Source of the DNA: a virus
Reading direction: 5' to 3' (one strand)
DNA length: 64,000 bases
Virus record (IMG/VR): IMGVR_UViG_3300020229_000001
Span: 30,386-94,385 of that record
Position numbers and translations under genes: made by a program. The notes beneath the pieces were generated by a model, which saw only the letters and a program-made list of their open reading frames with translations, had not been told where the DNA came from and made no database searches. Shown here piece after piece: positions 206 through 64,000 of this stretch (the first letter of the stretch is position 1; each line of letters opens with the position of its first letter).

Positions 206-1477
206 ATTATTCTTCGTCTTCTCCTTCAGCTTCTTTTCGCAGTTTTTCTGCCGCTTTGATTGCTTTTTCTTTTTCCATCAATTGCTTCATTAGCCCCTTA
301 TTGGGAGACTTAACGCCAGTGAGGTTTGCCTCATCGGCCTCGGACAAGAGTCGCACTGTTTCCCCTTTACGATCCACTTGGAACAAACCTCCAGCTTGGA
401 TGATGTCCAAAGAAAACTTGGCGGCGTCAGCGTAGTCCGCTGGCTCTGCTCCGCTCGTTGCCGCCCCGTACTTGCCAAACAATTCCTTCTCGTTAAACCA
501 CAGGGCAGCCTGCATATCGGCAATGGTAACAACAATCCCGGCTTGAGCAAGCCTAGCCTGAGCCTGCTCCATCGTTGTCTGCTGAAACGCCCGCTCGTTA
601 CTGGCCCGAGGTGCGCCAAGCGGCGTTGTGCGATCCTGCACCCAATTCTTGGCGGCTCTTCGTAATTCGGTTTTTCCCTTGAAGCTGCCAGTTCTGAATA
701 CTTTTTCAAGGTGCTCCGCAAACTCAAGCATCGCGCCGCTGTCTTCTAGTAATTTGTGGAATTCTTTTTTCGACCATCTGGGCGCGTCTTCTCCGTAAAG
801 GTAGGGCTCTTCAACTCCTTTTTTAATGAGCACTCGGTCGGTATATTCCTTGCCTTTTTTGAGCGCCTGATTTCTGTTGTATTCCTCAATCAACGAGTCT
901 TGAAACCGCTCAAATTGATGCCCTTCCTTGAGAGGATCATACTTAAATGAGCGACCAAGAATTCGATTCCACGTTCTGGTATACCAAAGGTCGGCGGTTA
1001 GCGTTGAGTAGTCGCCGTGGAGGTTATTAATGAAAGATCCGATCTTTGGCCCAAAGACCATAAACCCGGTCACCATTTGATTTTTGCCGCCCTCAACAGA
1101 CAGCGGCTCCCCGTTGTAATACAGGGAGGTGTCTTGCTTCAGATTCTTGTTCCAATTTGCAACAGTGTCCGTTTTGAACAAAAGGGCTCGGAGCTGACTT
1201 GGGGTATGCCTTGTCAGCAACTCGTGCAATTTCAGTATGTTGTTTTCAATCGCGGCAGTTTTATCGCCGAATGTGCCATGCAGTGCGGTGACAATTTCTG
1301 GAAGGGTTTTGCCATTTTCTAACATTAGCGTTACCCGAGTTGCCATTTTGCCATTCTCGAAGACGTCGTTGCCCTGAGACGCAATCCCGAGAACCGCATC
1401 GAAAACAAGGCTCTTGTCTGCGTCGTGCTGGGGAGACCCAACCTCGAGCCACGGAAAGAGTTGCGAGTACATTCCCT
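196..1477. repeat. Copy 1 of a ~1.28 kb imperfect direct repeat (copy 2 at ~62719-64000)
   Basis: Same sequence at offset 62,523; 13 aa differences over the 421 aa compared, plus many synonymous changes. Confidence 0.95.
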
Positions 1478-4400
1478 TCATCCGCTTCAGGGCCGCGTCG
1501 TACCATCCAATTGCGTTTGGAGACTTTGGATTCAGCGCGGCCCTCGCCATGTGCTGCTGAACCTCGTCGGCCACAACTGACGAAATGATATCCATCGCCC
1601 TCGGGCTATAGTCTCCGGGCAGGATTACCCCATCACTGGCCGCTCGATTCTGCAACGCATGAATCATGTCCGGGACGGCTGTCTCCCGCTTGCCTGCAAG
1701 CGTGTACGTTGACCTCACGGGCAGGATTTCGGTTCCTGCCAACAGCGGACTGGCGCTCCGGGCCATTGGGTCTACCGGGTACAGCTTGTCCTTTATGTAC
1801 TTGGCGTCGGAGTCACTGAGTCCGTACCGCTTGGCGTAGAGGGCTGGGTCGAAGATGTAGCCTTGCGCGGCTGCTGCCTTGGCGTAGTCGATAAGAAGGC
1901 TATCGATACTTCGTTGTAGTAAGGACTGTCCACCGGAAGTGGCTTGAAGCCAAACCGGGAGAACTCTCTGGTTGTCTCTTCCCTTGAATATTTTTTCAGT
2001 TTCATAAAGCTCTGAGGCTACAATTGTTTCGTATGATTGATCGATTGATGCTGATTTTTGGATTTCACTGAGCTTGCTGGCAAAGTCCTCGGTCCCAAAG
2101 TTGAGTGCCTTGATGCCCTTGCCGTCCGTTGTCGTAGAAACGTCTACGCCAACTTCTCTCGCTTTGTCAAAAGCCAACTTCAACTGGTCGTCGGTGAGCT
2201 TTGTAGAATGGATCAGGTATGCTGCCTGAGTGCCTTCTTTAAGGTCAATTGACGGCTTGTAGGTGATGCCAGCGTCTTGAGCAAAAGCAAGAGTTAGAAG
2301 CTGAGTGATTTGCTTTGCCTTGTCAAACGTAAGTTCAGGATGAACCAAATCAAAAGATGGTTCTACCTTCCCCTGCCACGTTCCTGCAATCGGCCTAATC
2401 TCCAGACCATCAAGGCCAAAGAAGTCTTTTAGTATCCCGTTGAAGCCATCGGATTTCAGAATGTCATGCACTGAGTCTCCAAGCTCTGCCATGCTGCGAA
2501 TTCCAAGCGGATTGGCGGTGAATGGAGCAGGGGTTGCCTTTAGCGACACCTCTTCAAACGACCTGTTTAGCTTTTTGACTTGAGCTTTCCACGCGGCGTC
2601 TTCCGGGCTCATGTTCTGCATCTTTTCCGGGAACTGCGAGCGCATCTCTTCGATCTGGGTGTCGAGCGCGGCAACCTTTTCCGCATAGGCGGCCTTCTTT
2701 GCTTCAAATTCCGCCGTTTTTTCAGGCTTCTTTGCGTTCTTAGCCGCCTCGTCTGCCTTGGCAAGCAACTCAAGTTGGCGTTGTTTTTTAAGCTGCAATT
2801 CGCCCCATGTTTCAACTGCTGCCTTTTGGCCGGAAACCGTTTTAAGCTGATCTCTTAGCTCGGATGCCGTTCTGTAGGTGTAACCGTGCTCACCGGGCTT
2901 GGCTCCAATCACAACGCTGAACATCCCGCGTTCATCAGTGATGGTTTTGGGAAGCGGAGCAATTGACGCAAGAGCAGGCAGACGCTCTTCCTCTTTTGGC
3001 TCTATTTTTATGCCTTCCAGCGCCCCGGGAATATTTTCGTTGTCCGGCATAAACCGCACCTGAGCACCTTCAAGGGCTCCCGAGGCGCTGGGGTCGGTTA
3101 GGAATGGTTTAATTTCGTCGTATTTTTCACGACTGATGGAGCCATTCACCATTTTAGTAAACAGCTTTCGATTAAACGCCTTGATGTCATTGGCATCCGA
3201 TGCATTTGCATAACGCATTGGCACATCGATGACAAAAATGGCCTCCTTTCCATCGGGGCCAAGCCCCGAAACCACATTTCCTTCGTGGGCATCTCGCAAA
3301 AATGTTTTTGCCTTTGGATTGTAGAATTCAAAAAGATTGCCTCTTACTATCCTGAAAAAGTTTCTTTGATTTAAATATGAATCAATTTGGTTAATTGATA
3401 ACGGGTCTAAAATTTTGACGTAAGGCTGCTCCGTGACAACATACGCACCGGGATCAGATCCCGTTACCCTTCCAGTAACAAGGTCTGAAAAATTTCCCTG
3501 AACATTGGCTTCCGATTCCTTTGCTTGATCGTGGATTCCCTTAACGGTGATTTTTGTTTCAGGGAAAAACTCATTGTGCAGTCGAATTCGGTCGAAATAA
3601 TCACCCCAGTTTTCTTCAAACATGGGAATATTTGTCCGCTTTTCAACTTTGCCATTTTCATTTCCAAGAATGACTTGATGCTCGGCCCCTGATTTATACC
3701 CCGACGCCCTCCACCTCTCGAGAAAGTCCCGATGATCCAAAAGCGCCCCGTGCTGGCGTGCTGCATCAACTAGACGGGTGTCTTGCGCTCGCTTTGCTGC
3801 CTCTGACGCACGGCGACTTTCAGTTTCTCCTCGAACCTGTTCTGATTCTGAATCCTTTCCTCTAACGGAACGCTCGAAAACACTTCCGAGATTCTCACTA
3901 GGTGCTCTCGACCCTTGTTTGTTTTGGCTGCTTCCTGCTCTACTAACCTCTCCCTCTCTGCTCTGTCTGGAATTAAGTATTCGTTCATATTCTTCTTTTT
4001 CGGCAAAATCGCCAGATTCTTTAGGATTACCATCAGGCATAAATCGAGCCTGACCGCCTTCCACAGAGGAGCGCATCTCGGGAGTAATGGCGACTTTCCA
4101 GATTTTGGGATTTTCTCCAATCTCTACAACTTCTCCACCTTCTCCGCGTCCCCGGTTGTTAAGCGCAACAACTGCGTGAGAACGGTTGGTGAACGTCATT
4201 GTTGGAGCGATATTTGGATTTCCTTGAATGACGTACTCTTTCTTGCCTTCAACCTCACCCGTTTCAACTTTAGCACCCCATTGCTTGACGTACTTGCCAA
4301 TTTCATTTGGTAGGATTTTGTCGTAAAAGCCTGTCATGCCTTCGCCGCCAATATCAAGGTCTAATCCGTCAGCTTTTGCGTATGCCGTAACCGGATCTGA

Positions 4401-7400
4401 TTGAGAATTGAGGTCAGCAATAAGCTTTTCTGCAAGTGGCTTCCCTATTGTGTCAGCTACCTCCTGAGCAGACAGTCCGGGTTTATTTATTACTGATACA
4501 GGAAGGTTTGATCCATCTGTGTTTTGGTATGCACTGACATGATACTTTCCGTCACCGTCATTTATTAGGTCAATGGCTGAGACATGTTTACTTAGGGAAT
4601 ACCGATCAGCTTGCGCTTCTCCTCCGGTCCAGCCAATCCAATTCTTGCCGTCAGCAACAGCTTTTTGAAGTGCGTGCTTGAATAGTTGAATGGGCCAATC
4701 TTTGCGGAATGGTGCGTCGGCAACGCCGTCTTGACGCATTGCTCCTGCGTTCATTAAGGCTGTCCATTCCTTGCGCTCTTCAGGTGTTGCCGCTTGCCCT
4801 TTTGCTTCAATTTCACGCACCCTATTATAATCGCGAAGTTGTTCATTTTTGTACCCTCTTTTCCTAGCCGCCTGATGCAGATCAGATTGCAACTCTTCAA
4901 TCAGCCTGCCAGTTCCAAAGTCTTGAGTGCGCATATGCGCAACATAGTTTGGAACGTCTGGAAAGTGGCTTGAGCGAAACTCTCCAACTCCAACAACATC
5001 GCTTTCTCCCCTGCCATCAATTCTGGCTTGATCTAATGTGTCATAAGTGCCTTGTTCTCCATCAATAAATTCAACATCAAAAGATCCATCGTTTAATTTT
5101 TTAAATGAAGCAATTGGGTCAATTTCTGTTTTAGACGGCATTCTAAGAACAACCTCTTCGTAGTTTGTGCCGCCGGGAAGCTTGTATTTGGAGTATTGCG
5201 TCTCGTCTTCTCCGTACTCAGAATCGATTTGGTTGGTCTCAGAAACGAACTCTTCCGCTTCTGGTCTACTCATCCCAAACATTTCCATTGCAGATTTCTC
5301 TGCTTCCTCAATTGTGTTAAATTTTGCAGCGCCTCCCCACTCTTCAGCTTCAGAGTAGAACTCGCCTTCAAAGGACTTTGCTTCTCGCATCCTCTGCGTC
5401 TCAAACTTTGCAACGTAACCGTCTTTCAAGAACTGCTTAACGTCATCTTTCGTGACATATCCTTTCTCCGCCTGCGCTGCGTCAATAAACTGATTGATGC
5501 CGCTCCATTTCATTTCGTCAGGCTTCACGCCACTACCCTTCTGCGGGTCCAGAATGCCCCTTATTTGCTCCGCACTGGCCCGATTAGGCATCTTGTTTAA
5601 TAGAACCCGTCCAGCCTTGCTGTAGAACCCGGGGGCGACCTTTGTAGGGTCTTCCTCACGCTCTGGCATGAAGCGAATGCCTGACGGGATTTTGCTAGAT
5701 GCCCACATGCTCCCGCCTTGCGGATCTGGTCTGCCAGTTTCCGTATCAAATAATTTTTCTCTTCGTAATGTAGCCTGTTTTGATATTGGCTCTCCGTATA
5801 GTTTTGTTGCACCAATGCTTTGAGCATATTTTGCAATTTCTCGGTACAAAGCTTCTCCGTATCCTTGTTTTTCAAACCCGGAAGAATTGGCAGACAGCAC
5901 CACCTTCAGGAGCTCTGGGTCATACGGATCTCTAGTGACAGTTGCGCTAGCCGCAACCTTGTTAGACATTTCCGGGTAAATGTAAATGTGCGTGTCTGGG
6001 TCTTCTTCAATTTCCTCAACTCTAGATTTGTATTTTGGCAACCTTGCCTTCATTACGTTCAGCTCTTCTTGAGTTGGTACGCGACGGTATTCATCTTCCA
6101 ATTTCTCAGGTATAAACCGGACCTGCGCTTCTGCTGGCTGAACCGTTGCCTTGATTTCACCAGTGCCTTTTGGGTCGTACTTAGCAGAGACTGATCCCAA
6201 ACCTTTTAGGATACTACCACCGAGCGCAGGACGCTGTTCTTCTTTAGCCTCCTGTTCGGGCATAAACCGGGCCTTGTACGGGATCGGGTACTTATACTCC
6301 GTGTTTGCGTTCTCTTCGGCAGCAGTGTGCGAATCAAGGCGGAATGATTTGATGATCTGGTCAAAGCTAGACTGTTTATCGAGCTTGCGTTCGGATCGGC
6401 TAAACTTGTTCCGGTCTAGGTCTGGAATAGACTCAACGTCGGGCACATTTGGATTTGGTGCGCCGAGCATCTTTTCGTAAATGGTTCGCTTGAGCTTTGC
6501 AACATTTGGGTCTGCATCGAGTCCCTGCCAGCCCGGGACACTTGCGTCGGGGTTCGCAAGGTTCGGAAGCAGCACCGTTCTAAACTCGTTCCAAAATTTT
6601 TGTGTGTCGCCGCCCCAAGGCTCAAACACTCCCTTGGCATATTTCTCATAAAGCCCAACCTTCCTACGAAGGTCGCTAATATCCCAAGCAGTTGTGTAAA
6701 AATTGCCAGCCTTTGAGAGGTGCAATTGCAATGGGACGATCTGCCGAATCTTTGGAGAAAACGCCTGATAGTTGCCTTTGTCATTCAACCGGGAGGCGTA
6801 ATCGATATCAAGCACCGTCCCGTCGCCCCGAGTCATTAGGTCGTCGTACTTAAACAACAGTTCCTTCATTGAGGCTGGAACAATACTTTCAGGAAGTGCA
6901 GCAATTGCCGCACGCTGCGCTGGAGTCATTTTTCCAGTGTAGTGCAGGTCTTCATCATCTTTTCCCTGCCCGCCTTTGATCGCCCGGAACCGTCCCAGCT
7001 CAGATGGATCTCCAGCGTTATCGATGGCATCACGGACCATTTGCACCCGGCGCTTAATATGCGCTACGGTTTCCTTGTTTTTGCGTTCTTTTGGCTTCCC
7101 GGTGGCCTCGTCGTAAGCAATCTGACGTTCTACTTGTACTCGCCCACCGACCGGGACTTCGAGTCCAACTAATTCAGGATGTAATTCTCCAAATCCCCGT
7201 TCCTTGTTTGGAACATTATCCCCAGTCGTATCGTCTTGGTGATAAATCCAACTACCTTCAGATGCGTTGTTGTCAGTTAGGTTAACCGTCTGCACTACCT
7301 TACCATCTGCGTCCGTAACTACAGCCACTGGAATCGTCTCAAATTTCCCTGTGTCCTTAAAATACTTGTTAAGCAACTCTTTTGAGTTTTTTACGTCTTT

Positions 7401-10400
7401 TGGCGTAATGGGCGCAGCCACCGCTTCTCCCGGCTCTGCGTCAGTAAAGTCGCCGTCGTACTTCTTCATCTCCCGCTCGACGTTGCGTATCGCACGCATT
7501 ACCTCAGGGCTGTACGTTGCGCCAACAAGCCCAGAAGTCCACTGTTTGTACACCGCTGGCCCTGCAATTGCGTACAAGTGATTCAACGCAGATTTGACGT
7601 TGTTGCTACTGACACGAGAAGCCAACCAGTTAATTCCTCGCTGCGCTGGAGACTCTGGGTCGCCAAAGAACCTTCCTGCGTGAGCTTCTGCGAGAGTTTC
7701 CTCCCGCATCAATTCAACAATCTTGTTCTTGTTAAAGTCGTTTGCCGCTTCATCCCAAACTCCAGCGGCTTCAGCGTAATCCTGAACTTGTTCTGCTGTC
7801 TTTCCTTCTAAATATTTTTTGTAAAATTTGCCAAACAGATCATCCCGGGACATTCCGGGCTCCGCAGGAGTGATTTGTCGCACATTGCCATTTTCATCAA
7901 CAGCCTCTGTGCCGAATATTTTGTTGAACAAAGGTGCGATCCGCTTGCGGTATTCGTCCTTGCCAAACAAGCCGTGCCCAACAACTTCGTGAGCAAGGAC
8001 GTTTGAGATAGCCTCCCCAGAAAGCTCTGCCTTTTTTAAAGCGTTTTCAACATTCACAAACACCGTATCTTTGGCAGGGTCCATCGTAAACCCGTCCTTG
8101 GCGGTGCCTTTCCCAATCATAATGCCGTCAGCGGTTGGATTCTTTTCTAACGCCTGCTCAATAGTCATTGGTGCTCCAACCCCATTGAAATTAGGGTTTT
8201 CCGTAATCATCTTGTCGATAATTTGGCTAGATGTAAGCAACTCAATGTTCATGTTGCTGTTAGGAGTCAGCACCCCGTTTATGAGGTTTGACACTTTCCC
8301 TAGCGACAATTTAATGCCATCCTCGAACGCTTGCCGGGCTTCCGGGGGCGCAACTATGTTTTCCTGATGGAGTCGATAAGCAAACTCGTAATCTGCTTTG
8401 GCCTTAGCCGCTTCAGGTGTATTTGCCCCGTTCACCATTTCGGCAAAATGCGTTTTCTGAGCCCGATCAAGGCGTTTTTCAGACTGCTTGATGACCTTGT
8501 CCCAGTTCAAATTTGTGACATTTTCTCGAGATTCTGGGCTTAACCCAAGCATAACCCTTTGAGCCTGTCGCATCTCTGCGTCTCGGTTCATTTTGTTGCG
8601 AATCGGATCATTCCCTACTAATCCTCCGAGAACCTGCCCGTGAATAAATCCATAGGTCGCAAACTCAGCCCACATTTGTGCAAACTCTTGAGCGTCCTTG
8701 TCTTCAAGTACTCCCATTGCAACCATCATTGGCAGCATTGACACGTTGTGTTGCACAAAGACGTTTGCGTTTTTTTCAATAAAATCCAACGCTTTGCCGC
8801 CACCAGCTTTTTGCGACCAGTTCAAAAATCGTTGCACCTCAGGAGATGCTGATTCCATTTTTTCTAACGCCTCAAAGCGGCCCAATTCAGCGCCGGATAA
8901 CCTTCCAGCTTTAAGTAGCTGCTGCCCAAGGCGAGGCGCAGCCGCAATCGCCTTACCAGCAAGCTGAATTCCAAGCCCAGTTCCTGCGCCTTTTAACGCC
9001 CCGGCCAGCGGATCATCAGACGCCAATGCACCAGCGCCAGCGCCAAGTAGAGTCGACCCGGCATATTTTACAGGTTTTGGAAGGCTTTCAAAGGCTGTTT
9101 TAGACCGATCAATGGTGTCTGCAATGTTGCCAAGTGGCTTTTCGAGCCACCCGGGCTGCTCTCGGGCAATTGCCTCCGCTTCACGCTGCGCTTGCAGTGC
9201 CGCGCTATCAGCGGCGTACATAACATTGCGAGCCTCACCAGTCTTTCCAGCCGCTCTCAACCCTCGACCTATTTGCTGACCTAACATGCTCAAATCTCGC
9301 ACAACTGCCCCGCCCAACCCAAACACGTTTAATGGCGATGTCATGGCAATTGCGCCAACTTGTTCAGGGTCTTCCCGTAGACGATTGGCTTCTTTTATTT
9401 GAGCTTGCACCCCAGTTTCAGCGGCTGCTTCTGCTTGCAATCGACGGTTAGCCCTCGCTGCTTCAATATTGCCTCCAAATCCAAAAACAGCGTCTTCTGC
9501 TGGGGGCATCAACTTTTCAACAACATCAACCCAGTATTTTTTAACGGCAGGATCTTGCCACAGGTCATCAATTGTTCTGGCCAAAACAGCGGGATTTTTT
9601 TCCCTCTGCATGTGGTCGATATACTTTGCATTCATCCGAGTTGCAAAGTTCTTCCTAGCTTGATCCATTGCTGGAGCAGCCGCAGCTTCACGCAATGCAG
9701 CTTCTTGCTCCATAGAGATGGCAGGAGCAATTGATGGGTCTGCTAGAGTCCCTTCCGCAGTGGCTTTAGCAATGCCAACCTTAGCCTTGTCCCAAAGCAT
9801 AGCTCTACCTTCAGAAAAATCCTTTGTTGCCTTTAAAAGGTCTTCTCTAGCCATCAAAAGGGCATCGCCAAACACCCGAGCGGACCGATACGTTTTGTCT
9901 CGGAGCGACAATTCAGCGTCTCGGATTTGCTGTTCGTTTAGTCCCTTTTTTTGCTCTTCAGTGAGCGTTTTGCCTTTCCCGAAATCTTCAGGGCTACCGA
10001 CATACACTGCGCCTGTAAGAGCATCCTTTGCTAGCCTGCCAGCGCCAGCAGCAAGAGGAGGCAAAGACGCCAACATTCCAACCCCGGCCTTCCCTGCGTC
10101 TGCAATTAAATCAAACGCACTTGTATCCTTGTTCCACCTGTAATCGAACAGAGACTGCAACTGCACAGGGTTTTCGGCCATGTTGTACCAAGGAACTGTC
10201 TTGTGTAGCTCCTCAAGGTCGTGCGGGTCGGTGATTCCTTTGAACACCGTTTCCGTAATCCCCTTGCGGGTGTTAGGATCAGTGATTCCAGCGTATGCAT
10301 TAAACTTGCCTGTTGGGCCAACCGGGACTGGGGCAAACTGCCCAGAGCCGAGTGCTCCGCTGCCAATCAACGAAGACTGTTCTGGAGGCGCAGTGCTGCC

Positions 10401-10613
10401 GACCATTTCGGGACGAAACATCTCGCCGCCACCAGACAGCGTGCCACCAGAAGTCTGCATTCCGGGGGATTCCCCCTTGAATGCAGCTAGAATTTCTTCA
10501 TCAGAAATGCCTTTTGCCTCTTCCTTGCTGTAAATAGGCTGACTGACAGATGGCTGTTCTCCCTTAAACGCAGCCAGAATTTCTTCGTCTGAAATCTTTG
10601 GAGTTTCAGCCAT
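207..10613 (-). CDS. Giant (3468 aa) polyvalent virion/ejection protein
   Basis: Last gene of the ejection cluster. Contains zincin HEVVGH (7974-7991) plus EETLAE, a GNAT-like QGYGEALY, an EELQSD-type polyvalent-protein domain, a Kinase-PolyVal-like domain (GAEHQV..RIRLHNEFFPET..EQPYV..DAHEGNVV..FVID) and a C-terminal GPKIGSFINN..TADLWYTR..DMQAALW domain. Confidence 0.85.
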   Translation of the reverse strand: MAETPKISDEEILAAFKGEQPSVSQPIYSKEEAKGISDEEILAAFKGESPGMQTSGGTLSGGGEMFRPEMVGSTAPPEQSSLIGSGALGSGQFAPVPVGPTGKFNAYAGITDPNTRKGITETVFKGITDPHDLEELHKTVPWYNMAENPVQLQSLFDYRWNKDTSAFDLIADAGKAGVGMLASLPPLAAGAGRLAKDALTGAVYVGSPEDFGKGKTLTEEQKKGLNEQQIRDAELSLRDKTYRSARVFGDALLMAREDLLKATKDFSEGRAMLWDKAKVGIAKATAEGTLADPSIAPAISMEQEAALREAAAAPAMDQARKNFATRMNAKYIDHMQREKNPAVLARTIDDLWQDPAVKKYWVDVVEKLMPPAEDAVFGFGGNIEAARANRRLQAEAAAETGVQAQIKEANRLREDPEQVGAIAMTSPLNVFGLGGAVVRDLSMLGQQIGRGLRAAGKTGEARNVMYAADSAALQAQREAEAIAREQPGWLEKPLGNIADTIDRSKTAFESLPKPVKYAGSTLLGAGAGALASDDPLAGALKGAGTGLGIQLAGKAIAAAPRLGQQLLKAGRLSGAELGRFEALEKMESASPEVQRFLNWSQKAGGGKALDFIEKNANVFVQHNVSMLPMMVAMGVLEDKDAQEFAQMWAEFATYGFIHGQVLGGLVGNDPIRNKMNRDAEMRQAQRVMLGLSPESRENVTNLNWDKVIKQSEKRLDRAQKTHFAEMVNGANTPEAAKAKADYEFAYRLHQENIVAPPEARQAFEDGIKLSLGKVSNLINGVLTPNSNMNIELLTSSQIIDKMITENPNFNGVGAPMTIEQALEKNPTADGIMIGKGTAKDGFTMDPAKDTVFVNVENALKKAELSGEAISNVLAHEVVGHGLFGKDEYRKRIAPLFNKIFGTEAVDENGNVRQITPAEPGMSRDDLFGKFYKKYLEGKTAEQVQDYAEAAGVWDEAANDFNKNKIVELMREETLAEAHAGRFFGDPESPAQRGINWLASRVSSNNVKSALNHLYAIAGPAVYKQWTSGLVGATYSPEVMRAIRNVEREMKKYDGDFTDAEPGEAVAAPITPKDVKNSKELLNKYFKDTGKFETIPVAVVTDADGKVVQTVNLTDNNASEGSWIYHQDDTTGDNVPNKERGFGELHPELVGLEVPVGGRVQVERQIAYDEATGKPKERKNKETVAHIKRRVQMVRDAIDNAGDPSELGRFRAIKGGQGKDDEDLHYTGKMTPAQRAAIAALPESIVPASMKELLFKYDDLMTRGDGTVLDIDYASRLNDKGNYQAFSPKIRQIVPLQLHLSKAGNFYTTAWDISDLRRKVGLYEKYAKGVFEPWGGDTQKFWNEFRTVLLPNLANPDASVPGWQGLDADPNVAKLKRTIYEKMLGAPNPNVPDVESIPDLDRNKFSRSERKLDKQSSFDQIIKSFRLDSHTAAEENANTEYKYPIPYKARFMPEQEAKEEQRPALGGSILKGLGSVSAKYDPKGTGEIKATVQPAEAQVRFIPEKLEDEYRRVPTQEELNVMKARLPKYKSRVEEIEEDPDTHIYIYPEMSNKVAASATVTRDPYDPELLKVVLSANSSGFEKQGYGEALYREIAKYAQSIGATKLYGEPISKQATLRREKLFDTETGRPDPQGGSMWASSKIPSGIRFMPEREEDPTKVAPGFYSKAGRVLLNKMPNRASAEQIRGILDPQKGSGVKPDEMKWSGINQFIDAAQAEKGYVTKDDVKQFLKDGYVAKFETQRMREAKSFEGEFYSEAEEWGGAAKFNTIEEAEKSAMEMFGMSRPEAEEFVSETNQIDSEYGEDETQYSKYKLPGGTNYEEVVLRMPSKTEIDPIASFKKLNDGSFDVEFIDGEQGTYDTLDQARIDGRGESDVVGVGEFRSSHFPDVPNYVAHMRTQDFGTGRLIEELQSDLHQAARKRGYKNEQLRDYNRVREIEAKGQAATPEERKEWTALMNAGAMRQDGVADAPFRKDWPIQLFKHALQKAVADGKNWIGWTGGEAQADRYSLSKHVSAIDLINDGDGKYHVSAYQNTDGSNLPVSVINKPGLSAQEVADTIGKPLAEKLIADLNSQSDPVTAYAKADGLDLDIGGEGMTGFYDKILPNEIGKYVKQWGAKVETGEVEGKKEYVIQGNPNIAPTMTFTNRSHAVVALNNRGRGEGGEVVEIGENPKIWKVAITPEMRSSVEGGQARFMPDGNPKESGDFAEKEEYERILNSRQSREGEVSRAGSSQNKQGSRAPSENLGSVFERSVRGKDSESEQVRGETESRRASEAAKRAQDTRLVDAARQHGALLDHRDFLERWRASGYKSGAEHQVILGNENGKVEKRTNIPMFEENWGDYFDRIRLHNEFFPETKITVKGIHDQAKESEANVQGNFSDLVTGRVTGSDPGAYVVTEQPYVKILDPLSINQIDSYLNQRNFFRIVRGNLFEFYNPKAKTFLRDAHEGNVVSGLGPDGKEAIFVIDVPMRYANASDANDIKAFNRKLFTKMVNGSISREKYDEIKPFLTDPSASGALEGAQVRFMPDNENIPGALEGIKIEPKEEERLPALASIAPLPKTITDERGMFSVVIGAKPGEHGYTYRTASELRDQLKTVSGQKAAVETWGELQLKKQRQLELLAKADEAAKNAKKPEKTAEFEAKKAAYAEKVAALDTQIEEMRSQFPEKMQNMSPEDAAWKAQVKKLNRSFEEVSLKATPAPFTANPLGIRSMAELGDSVHDILKSDGFNGILKDFFGLDGLEIRPIAGTWQGKVEPSFDLVHPELTFDKAKQITQLLTLAFAQDAGITYKPSIDLKEGTQAAYLIHSTKLTDDQLKLAFDKAREVGVDVSTTTDGKGIKALNFGTEDFASKLSEIQKSASIDQSYETIVASELYETEKIFKGRDNQRVLPVWLQATSGGQSLLQRSIDSLLIDYAKAAAAQGYIFDPALYAKRYGLSDSDAKYIKDKLYPVDPMARSASPLLAGTEILPVRSTYTLAGKRETAVPDMIHALQNRAASDGVILPGDYSPRAMDIISSVVADEVQQHMARAALNPKSPNAIGWYDAALKRMKGMYSQLFPWLEVGSPQHDADKSLVFDAVLGIASQGNDVFENGKMATRVTLMLENGKTLPEIVTALHGTFGDKTAAIENNILKLHELLTRHTPSQLRALLFKTDTVANWNKNLKQDTSLYYNGEPLSVEGGKNQMVTGFMVFGPKIGSFINNLHGDYSTLTADLWYTRTWNRILGRSFKYDPLKEGHQFERFQDSLIEEYNRNQALKKGKEYTDRVLIKKGVEEPYLYGEDAPRWSKKEFHKLLEDSGAMLEFAEHLEKVFRTGSFKGKTELRRAAKNWVQDRTTPLGAPRASNERAFQQTTMEQAQARLAQAGIVVTIADMQAALWFNEKELFGKYGAATSGAEPADYADAAKFSLDIIQAGGLFQVDRKGETVRLLSEADEANLTGVKSPNKGLMKQLMEKEKAIKAAEKLRKEAEGEDEE

Positions 10614-15729: not shown

Positions 15730-17871
15730 TTATGCGATTGGAGGGTGAAGCGCCCTATATTGTTGCGCAGCCAACTGCGCTTCTGCTGTTGCTTTTGCAA
15801 GCGCAATAGCGTCAGCGTCAGCCTGTGAAATGTACGACGTTGCTGTAGCGGTGGCTGTGGCAACGGCATTTCCGCGCCTCCCCGAAATGGCACCGACTTG
15901 AACGGAGGCTGTTTTTGTAGCGGTCCAAACCATCCTTTGGCTGTTTGGATTTTCTTGCGGGGCAGGAGCCAGTGAAACCAGTGTTGTTGCCCCCGTTTCG
16001 CCTAAAACACAGAATTGCGTCTCGTTGAAAGTTACCTGACCAGTAGAGCGGTCTTGGAACGGATCTTGATACATGCGAAGGGCCTCGACACCAAGGCCGC
16101 CGCACCACTCGATTAAAAGCGAAAACGCCTTGTCAATATTAAGCAAAAAGTTGCTTTCGCAGCTCTTTTCCGTTGAATTTGGTTGCACGGATTCCGTGAT
16201 AAGCCTGCGGTGTTGAGTTTGAAGAAACCCAAATTTATCAATGTTATTTGATTCGTAGCTTGTCTCGTACTCGTAACCTTCCGTGGCGGCTAAGATGCGA
16301 GTGCTTAAAATAGGTTGGTAAGTACCCTTGCTGCCTCTGTAACTAATCTTAACGTCAACAGTCCCTGCAATTTGACCGCAATCAACTTCAGCGTAGGCCA
16401 ACTGCTTTAAGTCCATGCTGTCTCCGAGCAGCGCTGTTTCCATCTGGCAGTAAATTCGATTCACCAAAGTGGTTGTGCTGCCATCCTCGTTGATATTTAG
16501 GTAAGTGTCATACCTTTCTGGCACAAATGCTTCCCAAAGGTGGATGTGCGAGCCGTCGTTTGTACGCCCGTAATCTACCGAAAACGCAAAGATCCTCGGC
16601 GCACTCGTGACAACCCCAGAAACCCACTCAATAGGGCGAATCCCTGTCCAGACTCCGGCCCAAGCAGGGTTCCTAGCTTGGTTCCACTCGGCGGCGGCGG
16701 CATAATCGAGCATCATCGTTACCGAGTTGACGGGCTCAAGGTAAGGTATTGAGCAAAGTAGGTAATTTTCAAACGAGGCAGAACAAATGCCAGACAAGTT
16801 GGACGACATAAGCCGTTTGGCCTTTGCCATCTCCACATCCTTGTACAGCACCTGCGACGAAAGATAACTGCTAGCGGCAACGTCCGCGCTTACAAGCCCA
16901 CCTTGCGAGTACCACCACATCATCCCGGCTTGGAACGCAATGCTTTTCCCAGCAATGCACCCCACAGTGGGGTAGAGGACGTTCTGAAAGTTCGCGGTAG
17001 TCGCCCACTGCGCTCGGTCAAGAATCCCAGACGCTAGCGAATAGGTTGAACGGTCAGTCCAGACGTAGAGTCGAGAGTCGTTATTCTGCCCGACATAGTC
17101 CTGCATGGCGGTAATTCTACGCGGGACCGAAAAATCACCTCTACCCGATCCAATCGTGCGTTCAATCCAACTGAGGGGATCGCCAAGATCTGACGCTGAA
17201 ATAATATTTCCAGACGCAACCCAAAGGCGGTTTCCGGAAAATGCCATCCAATAGCCGATTGGAATGTCTTTTAATTGCGTTCCAGTTTGGTCTGAGCCAT
17301 CCCAAACACCAGCATATCGCACTCCATCTTGAACAACGATAATTCGATGCGCGGGCGTGATTGAGAAGTCGCCGCCAGACGAGATGGTTGCTGTCTTGGT
17401 AGCAGTTACGAAATTGACCCGTTCAACATTAGGGTCTAAAGAGATGCCTGCCAGCAGGTAGTCGTTCCAGTTCTTGGGCTGAACCAGCGGGAATGGGCAG
17501 TAATAAACCTTGCCATCGACGGAAAACACAATGTAGGGCAACTCGGACTCCTCAGACTGACCACCTTCAGGCGTGTAGATTGTAGCGACCTGCGAAATCT
17601 CTACACCATAAAGATTTGTGTACGTTGAACTCGCCTTGTACTGCTTGTTGGAATTAAAAAGTATTCCGCCTTGGAAGTTGCCACTTGGAAGCGAAAGCCG
17701 CATGGCAAACCCCGGGCGAGTTTGAACAATACCTCCGCGAACGGTAACATTTTGCCCCCATTTAAACTGGTCCTCTGGCAGGGTCCACGGGTTGCGAACT
17801 GAGTTAACTCCATGCGTCCACCCAGCGGAAACCTTATTGAGCCGCCCAGAAGTAATATTTGGGCTTTTCAT
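15730..17871 (-). CDS. Tail nozzle / tail tubular protein B-like (P22 gp10/T7 gp12-type)
   Basis: 713 aa beta-rich; NVTVRGGIVQTRPG near the N-terminus and MAFSGNRLWVASGN..ASDLGDP propeller-like motifs; synteny. Confidence 0.7.
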   Translation of the reverse strand: MKSPNITSGRLNKVSAGWTHGVNSVRNPWTLPEDQFKWGQNVTVRGGIVQTRPGFAMRLSLPSGNFQGGILFNSNKQYKASSTYTNLYGVEISQVATIYTPEGGQSEESELPYIVFSVDGKVYYCPFPLVQPKNWNDYLLAGISLDPNVERVNFVTATKTATISSGGDFSITPAHRIIVVQDGVRYAGVWDGSDQTGTQLKDIPIGYWMAFSGNRLWVASGNIISASDLGDPLSWIERTIGSGRGDFSVPRRITAMQDYVGQNNDSRLYVWTDRSTYSLASGILDRAQWATTANFQNVLYPTVGCIAGKSIAFQAGMMWWYSQGGLVSADVAASSYLSSQVLYKDVEMAKAKRLMSSNLSGICSASFENYLLCSIPYLEPVNSVTMMLDYAAAAEWNQARNPAWAGVWTGIRPIEWVSGVVTSAPRIFAFSVDYGRTNDGSHIHLWEAFVPERYDTYLNINEDGSTTTLVNRIYCQMETALLGDSMDLKQLAYAEVDCGQIAGTVDVKISYRGSKGTYQPILSTRILAATEGYEYETSYESNNIDKFGFLQTQHRRLITESVQPNSTEKSCESNFLLNIDKAFSLLIEWCGGLGVEALRMYQDPFQDRSTGQVTFNETQFCVLGETGATTLVSLAPAPQENPNSQRMVWTATKTASVQVGAISGRRGNAVATATATATSYISQADADAIALAKATAEAQLAAQQYRALHPPIA

Positions 17872-62675: not shown

Positions 62676-62728
62676 TTGCAGTTCCAACGTTTGAGTGATG
62701 CGGCCTTCCGAGTTACGTTTTTTGGCAT
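62672..62728 (-). pseudogene. Internally deleted 18-aa remnant of the DUF6321-like gene
   Basis: MPKNVTRKAASLKRWNCK occupies the same position as the gene at 1-205, with the same MPK start joined to a DUF6321-like C-terminus. Confidence 0.6.
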
Positions 62729-62729
62729 A

Positions 62730-64000
62730 TTATTCTTCGTCTTCTCCTTCAGCTTCTTTTCGCAGTTTTTCTGCCGCTTTGATTGCTTTTTCTTTTTCCA
62801 TCAATTGCTTCAAAAGTCCTTTATTTGGTGACTTTACGCCAGTCAATTGAGCCTCATCGGCCTCGGACAAGAGTCGCACTGTTTTCCCTTTACGATCCAC
62901 TTGGAACAAACCTCCAGCTTGGATGATGTCCAAAGAAAACTTGGCGGCGTCAGCGTAGTCCGCTGGTTCTGCTCCGCTGGTGGCCGCGCCGTACTTCCCA
63001 AACAGCTCCTTCTCATTAAACCACAAGGCGGCTTGCATGTCAGCAATCGAAACATTAATCCCGGCCTGAGCGAGCCTAGCCTGAGCCTGTTCCATTGTCG
63101 TCTGTTGAAAAGCACGCTCATTACTTGCCCGGGGGGCGGCAAGCGGCGTCGTTCGATCTTGAACCCAATTCTTGGCGGCTCTTCGTAATTCGGTTTTTCC
63201 CTTGAAGCTGCCAGTTCTGAACACTTTTTCGAGGTGCTCCGCAAACTGAAGCAGTGCGCCACTATCTTCCAATAATTTGTGAAACTCTTTTTTGGAGCCT
63301 TTAGGGGCGTCCTCGCCGTAGAGGTAAGGCTCTTCGACTCCTTTTTTAATAAGCACTCGGTCGGTGTACTCTTTGCCTTTTTTGATGGCTTGATTCCGAT
63401 TGTATTCCTCAATCAACGAGTCTTGGAACCGCTCAAATTGATGCCCCTCCTTGAGAGGATCATACTTAAATGAGCGACCAAGAATTCGATTCCACGTTCG
63501 GGTATACCAAAGGTCGGCGGTGAGGGTCGAGTAGTCGCCATGAAGGTTATTAATAAACGATCCGATTTTTGGCCCAAAGACCATAAACCCGGTCACCATT
63601 TGATTTTTACCGCCCTCAACAGACAGCGGCTCCCCGTTGTAATACAGGGAAGTGTCTTGCTTCAGATTCTTGTTCCAATTTGCAACAGTGTCCGTTTTGA
63701 ACAAAAGGGTTCGGAGCTGGCTTGGGGTATGTCTTGTCAGCAACTCGTGCAATTTTAATATGTTGTTTTCAATCGCGGCAGTCTTGTCGCCAAACGTGCC
63801 ATGCAGTGCGGTGACAATCTCTGGAAGAGTTTTGCCCTGCTCCAGCATTAGAGTCACCCGAGTTGCCATCTTTCCATTCTCGAAGACGTCGTTGCCCTGA
63901 GACGCAATCCCGAGAACCGCATCGAAAACAAGGCTCTTGTCTGCGTCGTGCTGGGGAGACCCAACCTCGAGCCACGGAAAGAGTTGCGAGTACATTCCCT
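62730..64000 (-). CDS. 3' end of a second, diverged copy of the giant polyvalent gene; truncated by the window edge
   Basis: 408/421 aa identical to the C-terminus of the 3468-aa protein. Confidence 0.9.
   Translation of the reverse strand, partial: GMYSQLFPWLEVGSPQHDADKSLVFDAVLGIASQGNDVFENGKMATRVTLMLEQGKTLPEIVTALHGTFGDKTAAIENNILKLHELLTRHTPSQLRTLLFKTDTVANWNKNLKQDTSLYYNGEPLSVEGGKNQMVTGFMVFGPKIGSFINNLHGDYSTLTADLWYTRTWNRILGRSFKYDPLKEGHQFERFQDSLIEEYNRNQAIKKGKEYTDRVLIKKGVEEPYLYGEDAPKGSKKEFHKLLEDSGALLQFAEHLEKVFRTGSFKGKTELRRAAKNWVQDRTTPLAAPRASNERAFQQTTMEQAQARLAQAGINVSIADMQAALWFNEKELFGKYGAATSGAEPADYADAAKFSLDIIQAGGLFQVDRKGKTVRLLSEADEAQLTGVKSPNKGLLKQLMEKEKAIKAAEKLRKEAEGEDEE

Follow-up and report, generated by a model that had tools for sequence, protein, structure and literature searches.

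We analysed a window of 64,000 nucleotides from the IMG/VR virus record IMGVR_UViG_3300020229_000001 (bases 30386-94385 of 94,385 bp), which belongs to an uncultured lake-water phage. The window carries one open reading frame (ORF) of 3468 amino acids (aa) on the minus strand at positions 207-10613, here called P0001, in which five copies of a short peptide with the core RFMP join the modules of the protein. RFMP is the seam at which related phages gain, lose, and reorder their cassettes. Codon usage and distribution of its copies show that RFMP is kept by selection on the protein and is confined to these giant proteins. We propose that the peptide may also be a processing site of a zincin-like metallopeptidase in the same chain.

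The joint peptide and the modules of P0001

An initial annotation of this DNA had reported five RF[MI]P[DE] peptides, and all five are in the frame of this one ORF exactly where it had placed them (its coordinates span the four residues RF[MI]P). They start at aa 1449, 1499, 1647, 2190, and 2520:

6258..6269, minus strand: joint 1, RFMP, aa 1449-1452, context YKA-RFMP-EQ; coil of pLDDT<50, model residues 1-86
6108..6119, minus strand: joint 2, RFIP, aa 1499-1502, context AQV-RFIP-EK; coil of pLDDT<50, model residues 1-86
5664..5675, minus strand: joint 3, RFMP, aa 1647-1650, context SGI-RFMP-ER; pLDDT<50, model residues 215-234
4035..4046, minus strand: joint 4, RFMP, aa 2190-2193, context GQA-RFMP-DG; natural cassette insertion site in a related population
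3045..3056, minus strand: joint 5, RFMP, aa 2520-2523, context AQV-RFMP-DN; pLDDT<50, model residues 1081-1131

The composition of P0001 predicts 0.003 copies of RF[MI]P[DE] against the five observed, and two or more copies were never obtained by shuffling the protein (0/20,000 shuffles). No further RF[MI]P[DE] was found outside P0001 in six frames of the whole 94,385-bp record. Other six-frame matches to the looser RF[MILV]P in the record are almost all in short frames (18-141 codons), and one RFLP match is beside a stop in a 417-codon frame. The same specificity was seen in related loci, with 34 copies of RFMP in 132,060 aa of giant ORFs and none in 129,383 aa of other ORFs. A literature search for "RFMP" as a word returned unrelated abbreviations only.

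The motifs always stand between modules and never within the N- or C-module, and their number is that of the modules minus one. The initial annotation had them bracketing a short linker, a GNAT-like domain, an EELQSD domain, and a kinase domain. This arrangement was recovered, with a 46-aa spacer, a GNAT domain, an EELQSD domain of ~540 aa, and a Kinase-PolyVal domain between successive joints:

207..10613, minus strand: giant ORF P0001, 3468 aa, classed from its domains as a polyvalent protein; follows a run of virion genes
6270..10613, minus strand: N-module, aa 1-1448; no internal RFMP, ends ...YKA directly before the first motif
6120..6257, minus strand: 46-aa spacer, aa 1453-1498, between joints 1 and 2; pLDDT 25-34
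5676..6107, minus strand: predicted GNAT acetyltransferase cassette, aa 1503-1646; PF00583, pLDDT 79-93, Foldseek
4047..5663, minus strand: EELQSD cassette, aa 1651-2189, ~540 aa; unnamed, well conserved
3057..4034, minus strand: predicted kinase cassette, aa 2194-2519; disordered lead of ~80 aa, then Kinase-PolyVal (aa 2274-2464, window 3222-3794)
210..3044, minus strand: C-module, aa 2524-3468, 945 aa; exchanged as one unit among relatives with different N-modules

In Pfam, P0001 matched Kinase-PolyVal (PF18762, E 3.6e-16) at aa 2274-2464 and, weakly, GNAT (PF00583, E 0.016) at aa 1528-1606. A PHROGs search of P0001 returned no family, megablast against the phage collection gave no match, and tblastn of aa 1400-2600 gave only two distant matches. 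No Pfam family, LPD families included, was matched by the EELQSD domain or by the greater part of the N- and C-modules. The EELQSD domain has no name in Pfam, PHROG, PDB, or the Atlas either; a search of the ESM Atlas returned unnamed clusters only, with scores of at most 0.85. This domain is widespread, being found in 194 giant relatives and 92 shorter ones, among them stand-alone proteins of 700-755 aa. Its alignment (A2) has invariant His, His-x-Arg, and Glu-x-Gln-Ser-Asp columns, and this pattern suggests an enzyme.

The region of aa 1430-2560 was modelled by AlphaFold2 from a 33-row alignment (mean predicted local distance difference test score, pLDDT, 62.8). Three domains were folded in the model: GNAT at model residues 87-214 (pLDDT 79-93), EELQSD at 235-759 (mostly 70-94), and the kinase at 838-1080 (50-80). 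Foldseek of the 1131-residue model was dominated by GNAT matches and gave no name for the EELQSD domain; the GNAT region matched protein acetyltransferases and GCN5 with probability 1.0 (Rv0998, GCN5, and others, E 3.5e-5). The initial annotation had named burial of the motifs within folded domains as evidence against its own idea, and the model predicts otherwise. All five motifs fall in coil of pLDDT<50 between the folded domains (model residues 1-86, 215-234, 760-780, and 1081-1131), with a chance of ~0.002 given that 30% of the residues score below 50, and they stand 5-10 residues past the domain ends. The RFMP peptides are thus predicted to sit in flexible, exposed linkers. P0001 has a feature characteristic of self-processing polyproteins, in that each module boundary is marked by a short conserved site in exposed linker sequence.

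Cassettes are gained, lost, and reordered at the joint

Giant relatives were sought with aa 1430-2560 of P0001. The search gave 194 of them (1.9-6 kb of protein), most carried by contigs of 60-66 kb, and 121 sequences were retrieved. RFMP was the most recurrent four-residue word in these 121 relatives, ahead of low-complexity Ala-rich words, and 39 proteins had at least two copies. Only R, F, (M), and P were fixed across the copies; Glu or Asp followed the Pro in about half of them.

Alignment of homologues had been suggested as a check on whether domain breakpoints fall at the motif, and similarity breakpoints did pile up there. When P0001 was compared with the relatives by BLASTP, the blocks 1-1456, 1494-1652, 1646-2194, 2171-2527, and 2530-3460 ended at motifs. 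In 28 motif-rich proteins, 41% of the internal starts and 50% of the ends of high-scoring segment pairs (HSPs) were within 15 aa of a motif, compared with 4.7% at random. The N-module is collinear and 67-80% identical in P0003, P0004, P0007, P0008, and P0015, with HSPs ending at aa 1456-1516, while the C-module is 61-95% identical to those of P0009, P0012, P0013, P0019, P0020, and P0024, with similarity starting at aa 2522-2548.

Cutting 45 proteins at RF.P gave 127 internal segments in 44 clusters, which follow the conserved N-module in variable order. The clusters included EELQSD (~540 aa), ART (~215 aa), GNAT (~150 aa), and a PBECR5-bearing segment (~523 aa), as well as unnamed segments of 190, 235, 250, 300, and 338 aa. 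The 46-aa spacer (...RPALGGSILKGL...KYDPKGTGE...) was conserved in several relatives (cluster 5). Module order varied between proteins; P0003, for example, has EELQSD before GNAT. There were 82 distinct cassette adjacencies, and the EELQSD cassette was preceded by 8 kinds of neighbour and followed by 12. RFMP was the exact seam in these arrangements, the upstream domain keeping its own tail and the downstream domain its own head. The Pfam domains of the relatives (PBECR5, ART-PolyVal, GNAT, and DUF7178) were each inside a single RFMP-bounded segment. The tails of the ART-PolyVal cassettes in P0002, P0003, P0005-P0008, and P0010 have a degenerate SERFNP 9 residues before the RFMP joint, which makes twin motifs.

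Cassette exchange at the joints is recent and is visible in the DNA within lake populations. The backbone of P0002 is only ~39% identical to that of P0001, but their kinase cassettes are ~97% identical from RFMP at 2190 to RFM at 2522, and the similarity is gone one residue outside the cassette. Nucleotide breakpoints were read from Logan contigs of lake-water and freshwater metagenomes. In X6, a contig of 27.5 kb, the match to the window is confined to 3043-4040, the stretch between joints 5 and 4, and shows 13 differences. A 660-nt contig (X4) departs from the window at 4036, inside the Pro codon, into an ART-type head. In a 2009-nt contig (X7), window 4036 is joined to 4024 with 674 other letters replacing 11, a net gain of 221 codons that keeps the frame and is placed precisely at joint 4 (4035-4046). 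The contigs thus break at window 3043, 4036, and 4040. The initial annotation had offered the motifs as possible junctions for recombinational swapping of effector cassettes, and this is borne out by the pile-up of breakpoints, the many cassette orders, the ~97% identical kinase cassette, and the in-frame insertion.

Near-identical kinase-cassette DNA was found in lake-water and freshwater metagenomes of at least 14 studies from 2018-2025 (runs X1-X24), and thus this phage group is a recurrent freshwater population. The GNAT and kinase segments had also been described as AT-richer than their flanks. This holds modestly, with GC of 0.447 and 0.455 compared with 0.50-0.51 in the N- and C-modules; the EELQSD segment is also lower (0.471). 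GC3 was 0.40-0.43 in the central cassettes (kinase 0.40) and 0.49-0.56 in the N- and C-modules.

Selection on the peptide and its candidate reader

The 34 RFMP copies in the window and the related viral loci use all six Arg codons, both Phe codons, and all four Pro codons, and their flanks differ. This full use of synonymous codons places the selection at the level of the protein, and such codon diversity is not expected from a DNA-level recombination signal or from simple identity by descent. The contiguous nucleotides common to the copies number up to 8 (TTYATGCC).

Other versions of the joint are repeated within single proteins: P0009 has [RK]FAGE three times, P0017 has FS[LI]R three times, and P0019 has [RL]FMAE three times and RFMSE twice. 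Further versions in relatives are RFKP, QFKP, FQPA, FQQD, and RYMP, and a 2388-aa protein with the EELQSD domain in a cultured relative, Dolichospermum phage Dfl-JY45, has joints RFSR, LFAR, and MFYR. The joints upstream and downstream of EELQSD agree in 17 of 35 proteins compared with 8.3 by permutation (0/20,000 permutations reached 17), although this figure is inflated by shared ancestry. In a comparison without control for shared ancestry, the versions follow the clade of the N-module, as they would if site and protease co-varied. The most telling case is P0009, which is 72% identical to P0001 over aa 1963-3460 and only 28% identical in the N-module, and which has RFAGEP where P0001 has RFMPD. 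In this case the joint version appears to follow the protein it sits in and not the adjoining cassette. Lineage-specific versions repeated within one protein would imply a lineage-specific reader of the joint.

The candidate for this reader is a zincin-like region in the N-module:

7344..8336, minus strand: zincin-like region, aa 760-1090; 31-sequence alignment A1, AlphaFold2 model
7974..7991, minus strand: HEVVGH, aa 875-880, putative zinc-binding/catalytic motif; HExxGH in this clade

The HEVVGH that had been reported upstream in the same chain is present, and its spacing is HExxxH and not the canonical HExxH. H875, E876, H880, and E972 are invariant in the 31 sequences of alignment A1, down to 19% identity, suggesting a gluzincin pattern. 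Gluzincins have HExxH on a helix and a Glu further along the chain as the third metal ligand, and the zincin fold has a mixed beta-sheet ahead of the active-site helix. The clade motif HE[VAI][VA]GH is conserved over at least 15 proteins, and more distant relatives have HExGH (that is, HExxH) at the aligned place. A similar HExxGH is functional in DPP III (M49). The AlphaFold2 model of the region had a mean pLDDT of 71, and its fold matches were weak though zincin-related (YbeY/AQ_1354, Z 6.7-7.0; Certhrax/lethal factor, Z 6.2). A sequence search of the PDB with aa 701-1100 gave no match. A hidden Markov model of the region matched 57 of the 121 relatives. Nine relatives with at least two RFMP copies were not matched; in eight of these an HExxH at aa 560-780 precedes the first joint, and the ninth is an N-terminally truncated fragment. 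Every full-length relative with at least two RFMP copies has HExxH upstream of its first joint. S78 and ClpP proteases were not found in the virus record; a search for S77 gave no match, but its control was also unmatched and the result is uninformative. Complex prediction of the zincin region (from A1) with the linker of aa 1436-1515 scored 0.00 and speaks neither for nor against an interaction.

The chance that RFMP is a processing site of the in-cis zincin we put at about even. P0001 would then be a modular, virion-delivered polyprotein, with an N-module bearing the zincin-like metallopeptidase, interchangeable effector cassettes (GNAT, EELQSD, and kinase), and a C-module, and the exposed x-R-F-M-P peptide would be the separator at every module boundary. 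The zincin would recognise and cut this peptide to give separate enzymes, either while still inside the capsid or once ejected into the host, and if joints 1 and 2 were both cut, the 46-aa spacer would become a free peptide. The site would co-evolve with its protease, which would explain why all joints have other versions in other lineages. Since every cassette begins and ends at the same peptide, any cassette recombined at a joint would stay processable, and we propose that the joints are tolerated crossover points for this reason. The initial annotation had called P0001 a self-processing polyprotein. Exposed linkers, protein-level selection, lineage versions, invariant zincin residues, and the lack of another protease in the searches above fit this description, while the cutting itself stands as a proposal. 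A broader idea is a self-encoded "cleavage code", in which the in-cis zincin reads x-R-F-M-P or the version of its lineage, a MARTX-like plug-and-play array is cut into free enzymes, and code and protease co-evolve. We regard this as possible, though on balance somewhat doubtful. If it is true, cassettes should be interchangeable within but not across lineages, and for thousands of uncharacterised polyvalent proteins the sequence could show where each mature effector begins and ends.

Several observations weigh against cleavage by the in-cis zincin. The GNAT and ART domains paired in P0011 and P0014 have no motif in between. The HExxGH motif has a one-residue insertion compared with the HExxH of relatives; it is conserved, and its activity is putative. 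The zincin fold assignment is weak, with Z of about 7 and no Foldseek match at E <= 0.001. The stand-alone EELQSD proteins of 700-755 aa have no RF.P and a conserved ...GQPLF tail, and the Phe of this tail aligns with the joint Phe after the EELQSD domain. Part of the motif at that joint may therefore be a feature of the domain. Finally, the virion RNA polymerase of phage N4 has a zincin-like domain yet is packaged unprocessed (PMC5512222), and thus such a domain does not imply processing.

The N4 polymerase also suits a second explanation, that RFMP is a docking peptide which is never cut. A phage-encoded partner (a pocket of the N-module, the portal, the capsid interior, or a chaperone) would bind it and organise, pack, or thread the domain string, and the chain would stay whole. 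An exposed, repeated peptide conserved at the protein level is consistent with docking. The lineage versions suit any co-evolving reader and not a protease alone, and the retention of the GQPLF tail by stand-alone EELQSD proteins points the same way. However, motifs that number the modules minus one and stand strictly between modules follow the logic of a separator and not of one tag per domain, the stand-alone homologues lack RF.P, and the candidate partner is only hypothetical. We consider docking rather unlikely.

Alternatively, the peptide might be a recombination joint or neutral linker with no reader, which persists by descent from one shared linker and offers microhomology for shuffling. 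The breakpoints within or adjoining the 12-nt motif and the shared TTYATGCC are in line with this. However, the four residues stay the same although their synonymous sites are fully randomised and the flanks have diverged, and the versions change together within a protein, even beside recently exchanged modules, which descent alone does not explain. We consider a neutral joint quite unlikely.

Cleavage by another protease, of the host or an unrecognised phage enzyme, with the in-cis zincin acting on host targets or the cell wall, appears very unlikely. Such a division of labour would agree with the view that zincin domains may themselves be effectors (Iyer et al., PMC5512222) and with the peptidoglycan role proposed for the gp47 peptidase by the phi24B authors (bioRxiv 10.64898/2026.04.10.717836), and the HExxGH variant might be impaired. 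On the other hand, the features of a prohead-protease substrate were not found: the record had no S78 or ClpP match, and the motif occurs in no other ORF, including the candidates for capsid and scaffold proteins. Joint versions that track the phage protein also argue against a conserved host enzyme.

SecM (RAGP) and RAPP-type arrest peptides have an R-A-[GP]-P core and tunnel-contacting upstream residues. A translational pause between the domains of a very long chain is scarcely credible, since nothing but a similar Arg/Pro spacing in contexts such as G-I-R-F-M-P speaks for it, while the core R-F-M-P has FM and not AG or AP in the middle, the FSLRS, FMAE, and FAGE versions lack R-x-x-P, the sequence before the motif is not conserved between copies, and at 5-10 residues past the domain end the motif would be reached with the end of the upstream domain still in the exit tunnel.

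Two further candidates were rejected. An internal translation start at the Met of RFMP does not fit, as there is no Shine-Dalgarno-like run in the 12 nt before the ATG and 17 of 157 copies have Leu or Ile for Met. The beta-clamp-binding motif is Q-x-x-hydrophobic-hydrophobic; Gln is at -2 in just 62 of 157 contexts, and the conserved Pro is foreign to that motif.

Genomic setting and comparison with known systems

All long ORFs flanking P0001 share its strand. Upstream on this strand are a homologue of an internal virion protein (15730-17871), a 1352-aa structural protein, and tail-fibre genes, so that the giant gene comes last in a series of virion genes. At the N-terminus of P0001 (aa 8-48, window 10470-10592, minus strand), ISDEEILAAFKGE occurs twice in tandem, 28 residues apart.

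The record holds two diverged, syntenic copies of ~31 kb (1-31862 and 63512-94385) that are offset by ~62.5 kb and have 67-91% nucleotide identity. Within the window, 62719-64000 corresponds to 196-1477, and the second copy includes the cut 3' end of the giant gene at the contig end (ORF 62730..63998, open 5' end). The record looks like a 1.5-genome concatemer or an assembly chimera of two related ~62.5-kb phages; an exact 62.5-kb concatemer was rejected because no exact period was found. As the relatives are on 60-66-kb contigs, the CheckV value of "100% complete" may describe an over-length record.

The Kinase-PolyVal match and the weak GNAT match place P0001 among the polyvalent proteins of Iyer et al. 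2017 (PMC5512222), and by its domain content it is a phage-type member of that class. Several unrelated enzyme or effector domains are present in one chain (Kinase-PolyVal, a GNAT fold, a zincin-like motif, and the conserved EELQSD domain). Polyvalent-family domains (PolyVal, PBECR, LPD) are represented by PF18762 in P0001 and by PF18760 and PF18814 in the equivalent cassettes of relatives, and the gene is at a virion/late-gene location. By analogy with phi24B gp47, a protein of a related kind that mass spectrometry detects in virions (bioRxiv 10.64898/2026.04.10.717836), we propose that P0001 may be carried in the virion and enter the host along with the DNA.

Like other polyvalent proteins, P0001 is a giant protein of a late/virion locus with unrelated enzymes, a Kinase-PolyVal domain, a conserved HExxH-type domain, and domain mosaicism, and its relatives carry ART-PolyVal, PBECR5, and GNAT. 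It differs in its HExxGH metal motif and in the lack of a Pfam family for EELQSD and most of the N- and C-modules. Iyer, Burroughs, Anand, de Souza, and Aravind predicted in 2017 that the zincin processes polyvalent proteins into functional units (PMC5512222). The general idea of processing is thus published, but that paper names no processing site, and the site itself is new: a joint peptide with lineage versions that is found at every boundary and is also the breakpoint of exchange. Few phage proteins are as large or as poorly understood as the polyvalent proteins, and the cleavage idea of 2017 had no known site. The four-residue joint gives exact residues and neo-termini, which makes the cleavage hypothesis directly testable. 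It also explains the evolution of these proteins by cassette exchange and offers a working guide to where unknown effector domains, for example the ~540-aa EELQSD domain, begin and end.

Prohead proteases also act at short sequences. T4 gp21 cuts at L/I-x-E, phiKZ gp175 cuts at S/A/G-x-E, and P1 DdrB is processed. Prohead processing resembles the proposal for P0001 in that capsid-loaded proteins are trimmed at short repeated motifs. It differs in the protease, as neither of the S78 and ClpP families was found in this record, and in the distribution of the motif. Since no other ORF contains the P0001 motif, it is not a general head-maturation code.

In the MARTX toxins of Vibrio, an internal cysteine protease domain frees the effectors of an array by cutting after Leu in the inter-domain linkers, and the effector content is reshuffled by recombination. 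P0001 would be similar in that one chain combines a delivery part, an in-cis protease, and a variable effector array, with short sites in unstructured linkers and with differences between strains that arise by cassette exchange. The two differ in that P0001 has a zincin-like and not a cysteine protease, x-R-F-M-P and not x-Leu, and a phage virion and not secretion; cleavage is established for MARTX and proposed for P0001, and there is no homology between them. In function, the MARTX effector array is the closest analogy to P0001.

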